Part shown: positions 1 through 6,309 of the stretch, in pieces
How the letters are laid out: the number at the start of each line of letters is the position of its first letter
Position numbering within the stretch: position 1 is the stretch's first letter
IMG/VR virus record: IMGVR_UViG_2703718791_000019
Length of the DNA: 6,309 nt
Strand: one strand, 5' to 3'
DNA from: a virus
Taxonomy: Duplodnaviria; Heunggongvirae; Uroviricota; Caudoviricetes
The notes under the pieces: generated by a model
Told to the model about the DNA's origin: nothing
Database searches by the model: none
The model's input: only the letters and a program-made list of their open reading frames with translations
Position numbers and translations under genes: made by a program

Positions 1-230
1 GGTGCTTTCAGAATATTGTCCAGGTCACGGCGGCGCTTATCCGGTGGCTCTGCAATAATTTTTATTGCCAGCCGTCCGGACAGGCTTAATTTCAGTCGCT
101 GCTGGCGAACAATAAGCGCCACTGCCCGGCGATAACGCTCCCCGGCTTTTGATACAAAATATGTGCTGCCACGGCGTCGCCAGTAAGTGTTCACCGTCGG
201 CGGGTAAGGTAAAACCAAATCTATGAGCAT
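1..230 (-). CDS. rusA: Holliday junction resolvase RusA, 5' portion (76 codons visible; 3' end beyond window start)
   Basis: Own translation of the minus-strand frame that is open to the window edge: ATG at 230-228, preceded by an in-frame TGA at 236-234 and a GAGG Shine-Dalgarno 6 nt upstream. Product MLIDLVLPYPPTVNTYWRRRGSTYFVSKAGERYRRAVALIV...EPPDKRRRDLDNILKA matches the remembered E. coli RusA N-terminus (LPWPPSNNRYY..., DRRRRDLDN motif). Missing from the ORF track because it has no stop inside the window. Confidence 0.8.
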   Translation of the reverse strand, partial: MLIDLVLPYPPTVNTYWRRRGSTYFVSKAGERYRRAVALIVRQQRLKLSLSGRLAIKIIAEPPDKRRRDLDNILKA

Positions 231-242
231 CAGTCACCTCTT

Positions 243-1292
243 TTACCCAAGCACGCCAGTTGCAAAGGCGTGATCAAGAAAACGAAAAATTAAATCAACC
301 TGAGAACCATGCTTTTCTTCGAACGCCAGCGGATCCGCATGAAGCTCGTTGTGATGCTCCCGACACAGCGGTAGCGTGAAAATATCGTGGGATTTTGTTC
401 CCATTCCGCCCTGACCATGACCAATCAGATGATGAGGATCGTCCGCTGGCTTACCACAACACGCACACGGCTGTGTCTTTACCCAGCGTGTGTATTTCTC
501 ATTTACCCAGCGGCGACGTTTAGGTCGTTTCATGAAGGATTCCGGAGACTCCGGATCAACGGCAATGCTGACCACCGTCTTTTCCTGTGGTGGGTTCTGT
601 TGCTGGTGGGTGTGAGGCGGTAGCGCAATATTTTTTGTGCGCTGCTTCAGTATGCTGGTGGCGGTCTGTTCTCCCGGTATGATGTCGCTTTCACGGTATA
701 CGGAGCGGATTTTTTCCGCCGGTAATCCCAGAGAACGACGCGCTACTGCCTCAGGTAGTGCATCCACCACCTGATTGCAGGCCGCCCACCAGGATAATTC
801 GGCCAGCGATAACTCCCTCTCCTGCGTGCCGCTTATTGCGTGACGGATGACGTCAATCATCCAGGCAACCAGATTCTGCTGAGCAAGTTGATCGAGTGAT
901 TCTGATGTCTGGTCGCGCAGCTGGTTGTCACAGTGCCAGCACAACACCATCGCGCCGGTACCGTAACGGTGAATGACTGTTTCGCTGTGATGATAATCGC
1001 CGTGTGGCCACTGGCAGGATTTAATATGGCGCAACAGCCAGTCAGACAATGCACCAGCACCACCAGCAGCACGAATCACCCGTGCGTTACTGAAAAACGG
1101 CAGCAATGTTTTGTCTTCCACTAGCGGCTGGCGAACGGCAGGAACAACCCCGGACGGCAGATTACGCATGCTTTTCGGTTCCGGCTCCACCAGTACCCGG
1201 GTATTGTGGAATACCGGCATGGATTCACGGCCCGGCTTAACGATCACCAGCCCGAGTTCCGGTACCAGAACAGGTCGAAGTAATACCCGCAC
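243..1292 (-). CDS. Cys/His-rich prophage protein with HNH-like C-terminal motif; resembles DUF968/YdfU-type proteins (family name from memory)
   Basis: 349-aa ORF. Start codon is GTG at 1292-1290 with a GGAGG Shine-Dalgarno 5 nt upstream, 1 nt after the TAA of the preceding ORF. Two Cys/His clusters: SCQWPHGDYHH...LCWHCDN and CACCGKPADDPHH...LCREHHNELH. Stop TAA at 243-245, 12 nt before the rusA ATG. Confidence 0.8.
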   Translation of the reverse strand: MRVLLRPVLVPELGLVIVKPGRESMPVFHNTRVLVEPEPKSMRNLPSGVVPAVRQPLVEDKTLLPFFSNARVIRAAGGAGALSDWLLRHIKSCQWPHGDYHHSETVIHRYGTGAMVLCWHCDNQLRDQTSESLDQLAQQNLVAWMIDVIRHAISGTQERELSLAELSWWAACNQVVDALPEAVARRSLGLPAEKIRSVYRESDIIPGEQTATSILKQRTKNIALPPHTHQQQNPPQEKTVVSIAVDPESPESFMKRPKRRRWVNEKYTRWVKTQPCACCGKPADDPHHLIGHGQGGMGTKSHDIFTLPLCREHHNELHADPLAFEEKHGSQVDLIFRFLDHAFATGVLG

Positions 1293-1293
1293 G

Positions 1294-1566
1294 TTACCTC
1301 CAGATGCGTTGCTGGAATGTGCGGGACGGACGCGGCGGGCGTTCGGAATAAAGGAGCCTGACGTAGATTATCCAGTGACGGTAGTCGAGGCTAAGGGCTT
1401 TCTTAAACTCATACCCACGTCTGCGGTAGTTATGAATCAGCCATTCGGCCTGTTCTTCAGTGCAGGGATCGTGCTGATACCAGTCATATTTGAATGTGTG
1501 AGAACACCGCCCTTGCCTGCTGGCAGGGGCGATATCAGAATTGTGATGTTTGGTATTGTGCGCCAT
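1294..1566 (-). CDS. hypothetical 90-aa protein
   Basis: ATG at 1566-1564 is the first ATG in the frame; stop TAA at 1294-1296 is 1 nt from the GTG start of the next gene, so the two look coupled. No clear Shine-Dalgarno. The ORF-track extension to 1647 starts at a TTG inside the terminator U-tract and is rejected. No recognisable family. Confidence 0.45.
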   Translation of the reverse strand: MAHNTKHHNSDIAPASRQGRCSHTFKYDWYQHDPCTEEQAEWLIHNYRRRGYEFKKALSLDYRHWIIYVRLLYSERPPRPSRTFQQRIWR

Positions 1567-1635
1567 CGGTTGTCTCTGCTGGCGCAGCAGGTGCCAGTTG
1601 TTCAGGCTGGCGTGTGGATTGTAAACCAGAATGCC

Positions 1636-1664
1636 AGGAAAAAACAAAACCCGCGAAGCGGGTT
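1636..1664 (-). terminator. Rho-independent terminator downstream of the restriction endonuclease gene
   Basis: Plus strand 1648-1664 is aacccgc-gaa-gcgggtt, a perfect 7-bp stem with 3-nt loop. On the minus strand it is followed by TTTTGTTTTTTCC (plus 1635-1647). It sits 73 nt after the endonuclease stop. Confidence 0.6.
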
Positions 1665-1736
1665 AGTAAAAATGTACTGAAGTCAATGACGTGCCATCAC
1701 AGTTAAAATATGACAGACTCTATTTACGTAGAGATG

Positions 1737-2615
1737 TCAGACTGCAAGATCCAAGGGAAGATCAGAAATATCCTTTAATCTTTTACCATTAACCATCACG
1801 GAAAGCATGTCAGCTGCATCGCTGAGCCCCAGTATTTCAACTGCTGATATAAGTTCATAAAGCGCAAAATGATACACGCAATCTATATCACCAGTACCAA
1901 GAGCAATAGACGCCAGACGACTTGGAGTAGGCTCAGCAGTAACAACCATTACATGAGGGAGATTTCCCTTACGGTTGCGAATAAGATTTAATGCCTCAGA
2001 ACGAGCATTCTGGGCCCGGTCGCTTCTTATTGTCCATTTGCAGGAAATACTTGCGTGTAATATTGGTTTCCCACCATTCGAACTCCTGAGAGCTGACATG
2101 CGGGTAACAGAATCATCCACCAGTAATTCAGGACTGTTGATAACTTGATCACATTCAGGTTCTCTTTCAACAATAATATCTGGTGAAATCGTATAATCAC
2201 TCCCCAGTGCAGCAGCTAGCTGAGGATTACTTTTTGCAGCACTATCCAATGCTATAAGATGGGCATATTGTTCATATTTAGCTATCTCTAATCTGTTTCT
2301 ACCAGAAACCTGATGTACATTCCATTTTCCAGGGCGTAAGTGGCTGAGTTTAAAAAAGGTTTTTTCTATAAACTCTGCGCAGATACTCTCAAACTGATTA
2401 CCAGATGTTTGCCCTGCAACACGTTCACCAATCGTTTCAGCCTGCAAGAAGCGAGCAATTTCTCTTGCTATAGCTTTACTGTTTTTGTTACTGCTATCTG
2501 CGTTACTAACAACTCCGGCAGTATTAATTGTGAGCGTATTCAGTAACAATTGGGCATGAAACTCCTTTCTGGCTTCAGCAAAACCAACTATGCTGTCAAC
2601 CAAATCTCCATTCAT
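1737..2615 (-). CDS. Type II restriction endonuclease, PD-(D/E)xK fold, NgoMIV/Cfr10I-like (predicted GCCGGC or RCCGGY specificity)
   Basis: 292-aa product from ATG 2615-2613, with AAGGA about 9 nt upstream and 14 nt after the methyltransferase stop. Candidate catalytic residues are SPD(146), SCK(193) and E(207): spacing D-47-K-14-E, the same spacing I recall for NgoMIV D140/K187/E201. C-terminus MVNGKRLKDISDLPLDLAV. The ORF-track N-terminal extension (2616-2750) overlaps the methyltransferase in another frame and is rejected. Confidence 0.75.
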   Translation of the reverse strand: MNGDLVDSIVGFAEARKEFHAQLLLNTLTINTAGVVSNADSSNKNSKAIAREIARFLQAETIGERVAGQTSGNQFESICAEFIEKTFFKLSHLRPGKWNVHQVSGRNRLEIAKYEQYAHLIALDSAAKSNPQLAAALGSDYTISPDIIVEREPECDQVINSPELLVDDSVTRMSALRSSNGGKPILHASISCKWTIRSDRAQNARSEALNLIRNRKGNLPHVMVVTAEPTPSRLASIALGTGDIDCVYHFALYELISAVEILGLSDAADMLSVMVNGKRLKDISDLPLDLAV

Positions 2616-2628
2616 TTCTGGATTTCCT

Positions 2629-3753
2629 TCAGGCTGCTTGACTATTCTTACTGATGTTATTCTTATACCGTCCCTGCAAAACTCCATACACATATTGTGC
2701 GATTTTTGCCGCAAATAGCGGTGGAACAGCATTCCCGATCTGCTTTGCAATCTCAGTTTTTGAACCGGTAAAAATGAAATTATCAGGAAAAGACATTAAT
2801 CTCGCTGCCTCACGATGAGTTATTGGCCGATCCTCTTCCGGATGTAAATATCGCCCTTTCTCCGGTTTGAAAAACTCAGTACGAATCGTTACTGAAGGTC
2901 TGTCCCACCACAGACGTCCAAACAAATCGGTCCCTCCAGATTTCTTTTTTAGCCAGCACGCCGGGGTTATATCAGGTCTTTTTTTCTGTAAATCGAAACG
3001 GTTACCTCCTGGTGGAACCGCTTTATATCGCTCCAGAGAAACAGGTGTGGGATTACGCCCAAAATGTAAGTTCAGCGGAGGAAGTTCATTACGAATATCA
3101 GTTCCAACAGGAGCAGGTAAGTCACCAATTGCATCACGCGTACAGACCCATTCAGGCAAAGCGACATCCTTATCAGGGGAACGATGCGTTGGTGCTGGCG
3201 GGAACGCCGGAATACTATGCACATCGAAGAGTTCTCGTTTGATACCGATTGCTATCGTTCGTTTTCTTGTCTGAGGTACTCCATAGTCAGCAGTATTCAA
3301 CACCATTGGATTAAGCAGAATAAAGCCCATGGATTTCGCTCTAAACGTAATGTCCGCAAACTCATCGCTTATCAGCAATCCGGGGACATTTTCCATGACG
3401 AACATACAAGCCCTTGAACGCTCAATGACATCCATATAAGGCTCCCACAATGCTCTTCGGTGATCACCATAACGATTCTTATTCAATAAACTGAATCCCT
3501 GACACGGGGGGCCACCTATGACCACATCAGCCTCAGGAACAGTATTGCTGGATGCCCACTCCTCAATATTTGCCTGAACTCCATGCAAACCAAAATTGGC
3601 ATTGTAGGTATTTATAGCTGCAGCATTATTATCAATAGCAAGGATACTTTCAAAGTAGTCAGACATCTCTCCATGAAGAAAACCATAAGATAATCCACCT
3701 GCCCCACAAAAGAGGTCTATCACTCTGAATTTATTTAATTCTTTCATCCGCAT
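2629..3753 (-). CDS. DNA (cytosine-5)-methyltransferase, cognate methylase of the adjacent endonuclease
   Basis: 374 aa with canonical m5C-MTase motifs in order: I FCGAGG, IV GGPPCQGFS, VI FVMENVPGL, VIII QTRKR, X QIGNAVPP. ATG at 3753 with GAGG 8 nt upstream. Stop TGA at 2629-2631. Confidence 0.93.
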   Translation of the reverse strand: MRMKELNKFRVIDLFCGAGGLSYGFLHGEMSDYFESILAIDNNAAAINTYNANFGLHGVQANIEEWASSNTVPEADVVIGGPPCQGFSLLNKNRYGDHRRALWEPYMDVIERSRACMFVMENVPGLLISDEFADITFRAKSMGFILLNPMVLNTADYGVPQTRKRTIAIGIKRELFDVHSIPAFPPAPTHRSPDKDVALPEWVCTRDAIGDLPAPVGTDIRNELPPLNLHFGRNPTPVSLERYKAVPPGGNRFDLQKKRPDITPACWLKKKSGGTDLFGRLWWDRPSVTIRTEFFKPEKGRYLHPEEDRPITHREAARLMSFPDNFIFTGSKTEIAKQIGNAVPPLFAAKIAQYVYGVLQGRYKNNISKNSQAA

Positions 3754-3836
3754 CCATATGCCTCAGATTAATGTTGAGCGTCTTACAGGACGCGTAATGT
3801 TAACTGGGGCTTTCTCTATCTGCCTTTTGGTGTTCA

Positions 3837-3861
3837 TGCCTGAGGCAGACAGCCTCAGGCA
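3837..3861 (-). promoter_or_regulatory. Perfect 10-bp inverted repeat (stem-loop) in the leader upstream of the methyltransferase
   Basis: 3837-3846 tgcctgaggc and 3852-3861 gcctcaggca are exact reverse complements, with a 5-nt loop agaca. No flanking U-tract on either strand, so it is not a canonical intrinsic terminator. It lies between the QueH-like stop (3932) and the methyltransferase start (3753). Confidence 0.45.
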
Positions 3862-3870
3862 CCCGCAGCA

Positions 3871-3899
3871 ATTCTACTTAACTCACGTCACCTCGCCAA
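3871..3899 (-). promoter_or_regulatory. Candidate sigma70 promoter for the R-M operon
   Basis: Minus strand reads TTGGCG (3899-3894), 17-nt spacer, TAGAAT (3876-3871). The predicted transcript start would place the inverted repeat at roughly +5 to +30 of the leader. By-eye match only. Confidence 0.3.
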
Positions 3900-3931
3900 T
3901 ATGAAATCAATCAGAAAGGTGATCCATAAAA

Positions 3932-4618
3932 TCACTCCTTCTCTTCTTTTCCGTAGTGGAGTTGGCCAATTTTGATAAGAGGGCGTCCCTGAGATTTGCG
4001 GTGTAGATTGGTATCGCGCAGAGAATACACACAGCCACAATATTCCTGCTGATAGAATTTTTCGCGCTTGCTGATTTCAATCATACGGGACGAGCCGCCC
4101 TGCTTGCGCCAGTTATAATCCCAGTACACCATACCCGGATAATGCGCAACAGCTCGCCGCCCACACTCGTTAACCTGCTGCATATTTTTCCAGCGTGAAA
4201 TGCCCAGTGAACTGCTGATCACACTGAAACCATTTTCAGCAGCGTACAACGCTGTCCGCTCAAAACGCATGTCAAAACACATGGTACAACGGATCCCCCT
4301 CTCAGGCTCCCATTCCATTCCTTTGGCACGTTCAAACCAGTTGTCGGTGTCGTAATCAGCATCGATAAACGGCACGCCGTGTTGTTCAGCAAAGCGAATA
4401 TTTTCATCCTTACGAATTAAATACTCTTTCTGAGGATGAATGTTCGGGTTGTAGAAAAAGATGGTGTAGTCGATTCCCGAGGCCTGAAGCGCCTCCATCA
4501 CTTCACCGGAACATGGAGCACAGCAAGAGTGCAGTAGTAGTTTGTTTGCCCCGTTTGGGAGCTCCAATTTAGGCCGTTTGAAATCAGCAATAGTCATAAA
4601 TATTTTTATTGGGGTCAT
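3932..4618 (-). CDS. queH: QueH-like protein (DUF208 family; putative cobalamin-independent epoxyqueuosine reductase)
   Basis: 228 aa carrying the DUF208/QueH hallmark [11 protein letters not shown] near the N-terminus, then [19 protein letters not shown] and [14 protein letters not shown] cysteine motifs. ATG at 4618; the alternative ATG at 4597 cannot be excluded. No strong Shine-Dalgarno. Stop TGA at 3932-3934. Confidence 0.75.
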
Positions 4619-4771
4619 GAAAATAGCACAGAGTGTAGCATCAGAGCAGGGCTATCGGGAATATATGTCTAAATCTGGTAATATCTGGTTTTGACGCAAA
4701 GCGGACAACCACGCTGGCTCTACCCTGCGCCATGAAAATGTCAATTCACATCTGAACTAATGCTCTTTAAT

Positions 4772-5197
4772 CTAGTAACGTCTAAAATATCTAACATTTC
4801 CTTGATAAAATGCCAGTACACGCTGCATAGCTTCGCTCTTCCGGCACTCGCGACAGATTATGTTCATACGCCTGTCGTAGCGGCGTATTTCTCCGTCGGG
4901 TAATGTCCAGATAAGGCCCGGATCAACCACTGCAGGTTTCTTCACCTTTGCCCTTGAGAGTTTTTTGCGAGCATTTTGCCAGTCCTTACGCGCCTGTTCA
5001 GACGGGAATAACCCGTAACCAGAGTTGTATACATCGCCACTGGCAACCAGCTCTCTGGCAAGAACGCTCATCAGATATCTTGTCGCACCTGTCTTGGCTT
5101 CCAGTTGCCGTAACGTCTCGCGCCCACTCCGGCGTACTAGCTCAACAACCTGCCCTTTAATTTTTTCCCGCTCTTCTTGTGTAAATACTTTTGCCAT
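4772..5197 (-). CDS. hypothetical basic protein, 141 aa, possible winged-helix DNA-binding N-terminal region
   Basis: ATG at 5197-5195 with AAGG 6-7 nt upstream, 15 nt after the TGA of the upstream gene. The TTG at 5212 used by the ORF track is less likely. Lys/Arg-rich; contains LRQLEAKTGATRYLMSVLARELVASG, read by eye as HTH-like. Stop TAG at 4772-4774. No family recognised. Confidence 0.65.
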   Translation of the reverse strand: MAKVFTQEEREKIKGQVVELVRRSGRETLRQLEAKTGATRYLMSVLARELVASGDVYNSGYGLFPSEQARKDWQNARKKLSRAKVKKPAVVDPGLIWTLPDGEIRRYDRRMNIICRECRKSEAMQRVLAFYQGNVRYFRRY

Positions 5198-5212
5198 AAG
5201 CGCCTTCGGCAA

Positions 5213-5960
5213 TCACTTTTCCGATACAACACGGCGGGAAGAATCAGTAATCTGTCGAACAATATCCCGGTGCTTGTTCAGCTCCCGCAGCGCGGCGCAG
5301 ATTCGCTCCCACTTCTGAACATCACTTTTCGCCCTGCGCAGCGCCAGGTTTGCCCTGCGCAGGGACGGAAAAATCAGCTCATCTGCTTGCGTTTCGGTAA
5401 ACGATAGCAACGGCTGCACAATGTCCGCCACAGTTTCTGTTTTAATTTCTTCCTGTGTTGCGGCTTCCCGGACTGGTAACGCAGCACCTGCTGGCTGAGG
5501 AAAGGCCTTACCATCATTTTCCGTTACCAGCGCGGCTTTCGGCTCTGCTGGTAAATTATCGCCCGGCATGCAGTAACGAAATTTACCGTTCTGATTAACG
5601 CGTGCCAGGCGCCCCGTTGCTGTTACGACCGCCAACGTGGAAGCAACCTTGCGAATGCTAACACCGAACTTATCCGCCAGTTCCTCACACGTTTTAGCCC
5701 CATCCTGACCGATAAACTCAATCATCATGTCTGCGGTAACTTTTTGTTCGACCTCCCCGGTCAGCATATCCTGTGCTTCAGATTTTACTGGCCGCTCTTC
5801 GGTTACCCGGGATTCACCTTCGCCAGCCAGAAACCAGGTGTGACCAGTTTTATCAACGACGCCATTTCTTTTGAGTTCCCACAGCTCGTTGACAGCATCT
5901 TCGCGGCTGATTCCAAGGCGCGATGCCACTACCTGTGAAGAGGCTTTTTTCAGTGCTTTC
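5213..5960 (-). pseudogene. Gene for a winged-helix-like protein, 5'-truncated by IS insertion; the open frame continues into the IS to 6037
   Basis: The 274-aa ORF 5213-6037 crosses the IS terminus at 5961. Its first 25 codons (MLPSEIMIWQPEFTDKILSRKPGAV) are encoded inside the IS right end, so the native N-terminus is missing from the window. The native part has two HTH-like stretches: VASRLGISREDAVNELWELKRNGVV and CEELADKFGVSIRKVASTLAVVTATGRLARV. Confidence 0.55.
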
Positions 5961-6309
5961 TGAACCGCCCCGGGTTTCCTGGAGAGTATTTTATCTGTGA
6001 ACTCAGGCTGCCAGATCATTATTTCCGATGGAAGCATAATAAGCTTTTTCTGCTTCTGCCGGAGGAATATGGCCCAGCCTTTCCAGCAATCGTCGATTGT
6101 TATACCAGTCCACCCACGTTCGTGTGGCCAGTTCCACTTCTGTCCGGTTTTTCCAGCTATTACGGTGTATTACCTCCGCTTTGTAAAGACCATTGATGCT
6201 CTCAGCCATCGCGTTGTCATACGAGTCGCCAGTACTCCCTGTTGATGCCAGTAATCCGGCTTCCTTAAGCCGCTGCGCGTAGGCCAGCGATACATACTGA
6301 GAACCTTTA
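5961..6309 (-). mobile_element. IS3-family insertion sequence, IS629/IS1203-like, right end (partial; continues beyond window)
   Basis: The terminus TGAACCGCCCCGGGTTTCCTGGAGAG beginning at 5961 matches the remembered IS629-type terminal inverted repeat (TG... end). The OrfB stop lies 42 nt inside the end. Orientation is minus. Confidence 0.85.
6003..6309 (-). CDS. IS3-family transposase OrfB, C-terminal portion (partial at window edge)
   Basis: The frame is open to the window edge. Translation ...KGSQYVSLAYAQRLKEAGLLASTGSTGDSYDNAMAESINGLYKAEVIHRNSWKNRTEVELATRTWVDWYNNRRLLERLGHIPPAEAEKAYYASIGNNDLAA contains the DDE-region signature GDSYDNA..ES.NGLYK.E and the WVDWYNNRR tail typical of IS3-family OrfB. 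Stop TGA at 6003-6005. Confidence 0.9.
   Translation of the reverse strand, partial: KGSQYVSLAYAQRLKEAGLLASTGSTGDSYDNAMAESINGLYKAEVIHRNSWKNRTEVELATRTWVDWYNNRRLLERLGHIPPAEAEKAYYASIGNNDLAA

Follow-up and report, generated by a model that had tools for sequence, protein, structure and literature searches.

A gene on the minus strand of the virus-derived DNA analysed here (a stretch of 6,309 nucleotides, called the window below) encodes a member of the QueH family, and its place has been found to be an accessory slot of a lambdoid prophage. It is likely, with a probability of roughly three in four, that this gene specifies a functional and orthodox QueH, that its native promoter came along with it when it was captured, and that it behaves as a moron giving a B12-independent route from epoxyqueuosine (oQ) to queuosine (Q). 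The enzyme would act on tRNA, it would be expressed in lysogens and benefit their fitness, and its carriage would represent a case of lysogenic conversion. The kind of enzyme is already known, and proteins identical to this one are named QueH in RefSeq.

Family membership of the encoded protein

In the list of open reading frames of the window, the gene appears as a minus-strand frame of 228 codons (3932..4618), whose translation contains three QueH motifs, located at residues 27–37 and 56–66 and, as RCTMCF, at residues 110–115 (residue numbers are given throughout in the 228-aa numbering, that is, from ATG 4618). The true start is most likely ATG 4597, because ATG 4618 is not kept in a divergent prophage copy (L004), in which it has become ATT, while ATG 4597 is invariant among the prophage copies compared and coincides with the start codon assigned in RefSeq. 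The original prediction had recognized in this frame a DUF208/QueH signature, and the profile search bears it out along the full length of the domain. In fact, Pfam PF02677 (QueH, formerly DUF208) is matched with E=1.1e-65 and 221.5 bits (the cut-off being 23.5 bits) over profile positions 1–174 of 175, and a phmmer search against the PDB matches the QueH of Thermotoga maritima (7lc5) at E=8e-22 across 175 residues. The signature is confirmed as real and well past chance. No NCBIfam model matches the protein; therefore, the name QueH in RefSeq must derive from some other source.

A search of 1.84 billion proteins gave 4,774 matches at E<=0.001, and residue conservation was evaluated on an alignment of 82 full-length representatives of 50%-identity clusters plus T. 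maritima QueH. At every strongly conserved column, the window protein has the residue found in the majority of these 82 representatives, the conserved set being C32, C33, P35, C36, N57, N59, E65, Y66, R69, W94, E106, R110, C111, C114, R118, S141, K144, C194, G195, and C196. The conserved cysteines, to which the original prediction had drawn attention, are all retained on this alignment. The six that form the metal site (motifs CC, RCxxC, and CGC) are present as C32/C33, C111/C114, and C194/C196, corresponding to C9/C10, C87/C90, and C169/C171 of T. maritima, and each of them is conserved in 59–81 of 69–83 representatives. The sole departure from the crystallised enzyme is Cys36, which stands where T. 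maritima has Asp13. Of 75 representatives, 69 have Cys in this column and a single one has Asp; judged from the alignment, it is T. maritima that is the outlier, and the window protein follows the family majority. Since Cys36 replaces Asp13, mechanistic details may differ between the window protein and the crystallised enzyme. Asp13 of T. maritima is also the residue mutated by the depositors of PDB entry 9dco (D13N).

The structural comparison with Thermotoga QueH proposed at the outset points in the same direction. The AlphaFold2 model of the protein (pLDDT 77, pTM 0.77) has the fold of the family, a Rossmann-like adenine-nucleotide alpha-hydrolase core with an Fe-S site, and its top five PDB matches by Foldseek are all T. 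maritima QueH (target-normalised TM 0.74–0.76, probability 1.00), among them the queuosine complex 9deu, with 7lc7/7lc5 at a TM of 0.75. Enzymes of the TtuA type, which are Fe-S proteins of the same superfamily, rank next and well behind. Sequence and predicted structure together place the protein in the QueH family as firmly as such evidence can. The resemblance to T. maritima QueH (PDB 7LC5, 7LC7, 9DEU; IPR003828) extends to the full-length domain, the predicted fold (TM ~0.75), the cysteines, and the length of ~220 aa; in contrast, the two proteins are only ~31% identical, the window protein has Cys for Asp13, and its carrier is a temperate phage and not a chromosome.

The prophage locus and its neighbouring genes

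The nearest match among complete genomes is Escherichia coli E110019 (97.6% identity over positions 1–5960), where the matching region belongs to a lambdoid prophage, the 46-kb locus L001, located beside a tRNA-Ser gene and mtfA. The genes of this region follow one another on one strand in the order cro-like regulator, YdaT-family gene, hypothetical gene, DnaC-like ATPase, DUF1627, DUF977 (Ren-like), and queH, and then C5 methyltransferase, NgoMIV-family endonuclease, small hypothetical gene, DUF968 (YdfU), RusA, and DUF1133, with the lysis, head, and tail genes beyond. Thus, queH occupies a slot bounded by the replication module on one side and the nin/Q region on the other, in agreement with the original prediction of a nin-region accessory slot within a prophage and of an adjacent restriction–modification (R-M) pair (Table 1). 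In five annotated loci queH is directly downstream of the DUF977 gene, and this arrangement recurs on no fewer than four backbones, namely the prophage at tRNA-Ser/mtfA, a Qin-like one, Rac, and the free phage HannyBb. The homology of the window to the prophages carrying queH ends at 5960, and positions 5960–6309 match (by blastn) IS3-family copies present in the 46-kb prophage L001. This IS3-family element interrupts DUF1627 and stands between queH on one side and the replication genes with the early promoter region on the other.

Table 1. Features of the window; the coding sequence of queH is given from its most likely start.
Feature	Position	Strand	Composition and evidence
queH CDS	3932..4597	-	221 aa; PF02677, PDB 7lc5, Foldseek 7lc7/7lc5; RefSeq WP_000150294.1 = QueH
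Minimal queH unit	3928..4646	-	gene + ~49 nt upstream + 4 nt downstream; common to prophages with otherwise unrelated flanks
Putative extended -10 element TGcTACACT	4632..4640	-	TG 4640-4639, hexamer 4637-4632; conservation across phage and chromosomal copies
hokD-type hok/sok remnant	3760..3899	-	promoter-like TTGGCG-17-TAGAAT (3899..3871) and 5' part of hok mRNA/sok (3864 downward); Rfam, promoter scan
Low-GC type II R-M cassette	1666..3759	-	C5 DNA methyltransferase 2629-3753, NgoMIV-family endonuclease 1737-2615; Pfam PF00145, PF09015; PADLOC MTase_II, REase_II
Upstream prophage backbone	4772..5960	-	DUF977/Ren-like (4772-5212) and DUF1627 (5213 to ~5983, 5' end lost at 5960); Pfam, PHROGs, annotated loci L001-L005
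IS3-family insertion sequence end	5961..6309	-	transposase C-terminus matches NF033516 and rve_3

The limits of the inserted unit are given by a blastn comparison with the Rac-type prophage L004, in which the homology to the window is confined to 3928–4646 (90% identity), and for related phages (PPompW, Evi, mEp460, and others) the similarity covers the flanks and leaves out queH. The unit is therefore a discrete insert between conserved modules that is missing from related phages. As in the case of morons of lambdoid phages such as bor, lom, and hokD, queH is found at a fixed module boundary and is accompanied by a promoter-like element. Unlike them, no terminator of its own has been found for queH, its GC content is close to that of the backbone, and its cargo is a housekeeping tRNA-modification enzyme and not a surface or virulence protein.

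The original prediction had also remarked that queH resembles the phage backbone in GC content more than it resembles the R-M pair, and had taken this as a hint of a separate acquisition. The values are 48.2% for queH, 42.7% for the R-M cassette, and 49–54% for the backbone genes. In the common arrangement (loci L002/L003) queH is followed by hokD, and positions 3760–5960 of the window are collinear with it; in the window, the hokD coding region has been replaced by the R-M cassette. Among the 995 complete E. coli genomes that carry queH only 56 have the R-M pair as well, and the cassette stands beside queH in 21 of the 80 IMG/VR loci examined. Thus, queH and the R-M pair are independent acquisitions, the cassette being a later insertion outside the queH unit. 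A functional link between the two was rejected in view of this later replacement of hokD, the rarity of the combination, and the difference in GC content. The trace left by hokD is recognized by Rfam as sok (RF01794) at 3684–3864, with 61 bits (gathering score 59, E=4e-12) and a poor alignment 3' of ~3760, and the surviving hok promoter-like site now faces the methyltransferase gene. No avoidance of GCCGGC was found in the prophage (13 sites observed vs 17.4 expected). As a hot spot, the slot admits not only queH but also hokD and R-M cassettes. In Erwinia and Pantoea, a C5-methyltransferase gene also adjoins the chromosomal queH; this is the housekeeping dcm, in the order dcm–queH–yedJ, and the adjacency is coincidental.

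Distribution, relatives, and putative promoter of queH

The gene is present in 995 of 5,426 complete E. coli genomes (18%), including ST131, APEC O18, and O157:H7 strains. At least 80% of its length is kept in 985 of these carriers, and 707 have it with at least 99% identity. A phage-borne QueH had been described as unusual, which, given this frequency and the name already assigned in RefSeq, was an overstatement: the label "epoxyqueuosine reductase QueH" is on 40 of the 40 records listed, sampled across the ranking of the 995. The gene has also been found in E. albertii and in 190 viral contigs of IMG/VR. One isolated phage carries it, Escherichia phage HannyBb (45 kb), where it is labelled "hypothetical protein," and the corresponding PHROGs family (phrog_3217) is described as of "unknown function." Other apparent cases of phage carriage were not accepted, namely the 328-kb "Acinetobacter phage MD-2021a," the 282-kb "Staphylococcus phage SA 1306 Kay," and short unannotated faecal contigs with QueH, for which the size or the missing annotation suggests host DNA.

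In the same set of complete genomes queG is universal (5,426 of 5,426) and queH is outside the E. coli core; therefore, every queH-positive E. coli has both enzymes. With queG as the last gene of the pathway in all 5,426 genomes, the oQ-tRNA substrate of QueH is to be expected in these hosts. The premise that enterobacteria normally rely on QueG holds for E. coli; many Enterobacterales, however, have a chromosomal queH of 79–92% identity to the window gene. The closest of these (88–92% identity) are from Scandinavium, Kluyvera, and Enterobacter, and those of Symbiopectobacterium, Erwinia, Pantoea, Serratia, Providencia, and Photorhabdus are at 79–87%. They are found in ordinary non-phage neighbourhoods, that of Erwinia, for instance, being flanked by dcm and yedJ. 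The chromosomal proteins are of equal length to that of the window and share with it 79–92% of their amino acids, and the closest genes have the same TGnTACAMT promoter-like motif ~35–40 nt upstream of the start; the window copy differs in being placed between phage replication and nin genes. The dN/dS ratio is ~0.05 between phage-borne alleles (dS 0.3–0.45) and 0.02–0.04 when these are compared with the nearest chromosomal genes. A ratio this low between alleles so diverged shows that strong purifying selection has been sustained on the QueH protein while phage-borne.

The motif shared with the chromosomal genes is the basis for assigning a promoter to queH. The putative extended -10 element lies inside TCTGATGCTACAC, a segment that is unchanged in three diverged prophage contexts with variable flanks, and it is 35–43 nt upstream of ATG 4597. 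At the matching distance from the start, GCTAC[AC][AC]T has been found in seven chromosomal queH loci (Scandinavium, Kluyvera, four of Enterobacter, and Symbiopectobacterium), the upstream TG being kept in 6 of the 7 and the surrounding sequence being otherwise unrelated. Because this motif is conserved in phage and chromosomal copies, queH probably has its own promoter; it is likely that this native promoter travelled with the gene, and it would allow its expression in a repressed prophage. It could also drive queH in the window despite the IS3-family element at 5961 that cuts off the early promoter. No -35 element was found at queH, and a consensus scanner found no -35/-10 promoter there. 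The predicted transcription start (~4625) would give an A/U-rich, unstructured leader of ~28 nt, in which no Shine-Dalgarno sequence was found and whose fold is not significant (z = -0.47). Control by a riboswitch was discarded, as no preQ1, cobalamin, or other relevant Rfam family is matched in the window or in 4560–4780; a likeness of "GCUACAC...ACCCC...AAAAA" to the preQ1-I aptamer was likewise dropped, with neither an Rfam match nor a significant leader structure. Downstream, the interval from the stop codon at 3932 to the hok promoter-like site contains no terminator-like site belonging to queH, and the 9-bp inverted repeat (stem-loop) at 3841–3863 considered for this role is the 5' stem of the hok mRNA/sok remnant.

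Proposed queuosine maturation without B12 and its alternatives

The sequence of events that we propose is the following. The gene and its extended -10 promoter would have been captured from the chromosome of a relative among the Enterobacteriaceae and kept as a moron in a fixed slot after the DUF977/Ren-like gene of several lambdoid backbones. The protein would act on position 34 of tRNA-Asn, -Asp, -His, and -Tyr, where it would reduce the epoxide of oQ to give the cyclopentene of Q with the help of its Fe-S site and without cobalamin. De novo synthesis of B12 is beyond E. coli. Because QueG needs B12 and E. coli cannot make it, a prophage queH would render Q maturation free of scavenged corrinoids. 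In the absence of B12, tRNA remains at oQ, and the prophage QueH would complete Q for the lysogen, and for the phage during its growth, much as MetE backs up MetH. Zallot et al. reportedly found QueH to be cobalamin-independent in 2017, and in that work organisms with both QueG and QueH are said to be few, Acinetobacter baylyi being one of them. The benefit of a prophage QueH may be small, because we know of no documented difference between oQ and Q in physiology, decoding, or nuclease sensitivity, and because corrinoids are present in the gut. QueG has the same predicted reaction and the same tRNAs as QueH, and both genes are in every queH-positive E. coli; however, the two proteins are non-homologous, and QueG is dependent on B12 (PMC4646009). 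The full queuosine pathway has been established in E. coli, and QueH has been described as a non-orthologous replacement of QueG (PMC5372724). In a passage of PMC6850298 that cites Frey 1988, enteric bacteria are stated to retain oQ in their tRNA when cultured in a glucose-salts medium lacking B12, and PMC4646009 likewise supports the persistence of oQ under such conditions.

Alternatively, QueH might serve the phage itself. QueH would then be produced in the lytic phase by translation of the early rightward transcript and would rapidly convert the oQ of host tRNA into Q, either tuning NAU/NAC decoding in phage genes or altering the recognition of tRNA-Tyr, -His, -Asn, and -Asp by anticodon-directed nucleases or defence. 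In favour of this reading, queH shares its strand with the replication and nin/Q genes of the early right operon and has them on either side; also consistent with it are the retention of the gene in the isolated phage HannyBb and the frequency of tRNA genes in these prophages, which suggests that translation matters to them. Those tRNAs, however, are for Arg, Ile, Gly, and Thr, none of them Q-bearing, and no difference between oQ and Q is known in decoding or nuclease sensitivity. Moreover, the conserved native promoter motif favours expression outside the phage programme, the gene of the window is intact even though the IS element cuts it off from the early promoter, and PADLOC gives no defence-related match for QueH, whose membership of a defence system was also rejected on this account. 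A role confined to the phage is hence considered improbable. Equally improbable is that queH is a neutral passenger in a popular lambdoid recombination slot, a working or once-working copy of no measurable effect, QueG being sufficient wherever B12 is present. Selection at dN/dS ~0.05 over a dS of 0.3–0.45, the retention of at least 80% of the length in 985 of 995 genomes, and the persistence of the gene on at least four backbones weigh against neutrality, although the universality of queG in E. coli, the entry of hokD and R-M cassettes into the same hot spot, and the undocumented phenotype of oQ versus Q are all as a passenger would require.

The last alternative, an action of QueH on 7-deazaguanines of DNA (in hypermodification or anti-restriction, possibly tied to the R-M system), had been called conceivable in the original prediction, which at the same time pointed out that DpdA/TGT, QueC, QueD, and QueE are missing from the window. 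That absence stands, and it extends to FolE and to the 61 annotated features of the 46-kb prophage L001: neither in this prophage nor in the window was there a transglycosylase or preQ0 gene from which a DpdA-based system could be made up. Although 7-deazaguanines are known in phage DNA (PMC6884629) and queH does adjoin an R-M cassette in the window, this association is a secondary and uncommon one (56 of 995 genomes, with hokD replaced), and the 79–92% identity to housekeeping QueH, together with strong purifying selection, leaves little room for a new substrate. Furthermore, oQ or Q in DNA is unreported, and a survey of phage 7-deazaguanine genes found no homologues of QueA, QueG, or QueH in the viruses analysed (PMC6884629). 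Such a DNA role is regarded as very improbable, far more so than the two preceding alternatives.

A moron-borne QueH that completes Q on tRNA remains the preferred reading, and its value lies in offering a cheap and well-defined physiological test and not in a new mechanism, the existing annotation being correct but ordinary. In full-text literature searches no paper was found on the carriage of QueH by phages or prophages in E. coli, the matches to "Queh" in reference lists being names of authors. The finding bears on surveys that report no Q-specific genes in viruses (PMC6884629), and also on experiments with queG mutants or B12-free media in strains other than K-12. If the enzyme is active in lysogens, about one in five E. 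coli strains finishes queuosine without B12, and the others rely on scavenged corrinoids. This would amount to a change of tRNA modification delivered by a phage, a type of lysogenic conversion that has received hardly any attention and that is overlooked in phage resources. More tentatively, and as a possibility that we hold to be less likely than not, temperate phages may be spreading a B12-independent Q-finishing enzyme through E. coli, the lysogens then keeping fully mature Q-tRNA, with measurable effects on fitness or virulence. If this is true, the sites concerned would be those where corrinoids are poor or sequestered, such as urine, blood, and a gut dominated by B12 scavengers, and lysogenic conversion would be acting on the translation machinery itself.

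Apparent exchange of modules 3' of queH

The restriction-modification (R-M) cassette beside queH has sharp edges, located at 1665/1666 and 3759/3760 when the window is compared with the queH-hokD order of other prophages, and its GC content is markedly lower (42.7%, with a GC3 of 30-37%). Between queH and the methyltransferase gene lies a remnant of a hok/sok locus, in which a sok match has been detected (Rfam RF01794, 61 bits), with the good alignment confined to the 5' two-thirds, together with a sequence resembling a promoter (TTGGCG-17-TAGAAT, 3899..3871). Of the hok coding region nothing is left: the R-M cassette occupies its place, in what looks like an exchange of addiction-type modules within one slot. 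The methyltransferase gene may be driven in lysogens by the orphaned hok promoter.

Features of the window other than queH
Feature	Window position	Strand	Remarks
Small conserved gene	1294-1566	minus	phrog_1212; unknown function
NgoMIV-family R-M cassette	1666-3759	minus	edges relative to the queH-hokD arrangement of other prophages
Truncated hok/sok locus	3684-3899	minus	between queH and the methyltransferase gene
IS3-family element	5961-6309	minus	transposase C-terminus at 6003-6209

State of the prophage copy

The IS3-family element has inserted into the DUF1627 gene at its 5' end, and the long ORF at 5213-6037 is an artefact, since it runs into this insertion. The element also lies between the replication genes and early promoter on one side and queH with the nin region on the other, and the prophage copy is therefore probably defective. 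In every prophage examined, the small phrog_1212 gene, which has no Pfam match, immediately precedes the DUF968/YdfU gene; the mechanical ORF of this small gene begins at a TTG and has 117 aa, against 90 aa for the annotated product.

QueH in chromosomes, phage records and structures

In Erwinia chromosomes, queH is flanked by the housekeeping cytosine methylase gene dcm and by yedJ, and in Pantoea it lies directly downstream of dcm (Erwinia/Pantoea loci L097, 3402-6902, and L093, 2774-5660). A C5 DNA methyltransferase gene thus adjoins queH there as well as in the window, which appears to be a coincidence. QueH homologues are also encoded in phage-labelled records of 280-380 kb (H92, H93 and H110), among them "Acinetobacter phage MD-2021a" and "Staphylococcus phage SA 1306 Kay", whose size suggests host chromosomal DNA misfiled as phage. 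The QueH assignment has not yet been taken up by phage annotation resources: the PHROGs family containing QueH, phrog_3217, is given as "unknown function", its profile beginning at residue 34 and therefore lacking the CCAPC motif, and queH of the isolated phage HannyBb (PP925841.1; L005, 6001-6687) is labelled "hypothetical protein". Residue 36 of the 228-aa product (4511-4513) is the equivalent of Asp13 of Thermotoga maritima QueH, mutated in structure 9dco; of 75 family representatives, 69 carry Cys at this position and a single one carries Asp. The crystallised enzyme departs from the norm at a residue presumed to be catalytic, so that in most QueH enzymes the CCAPC motif may signify an active-site chemistry somewhat unlike its own.
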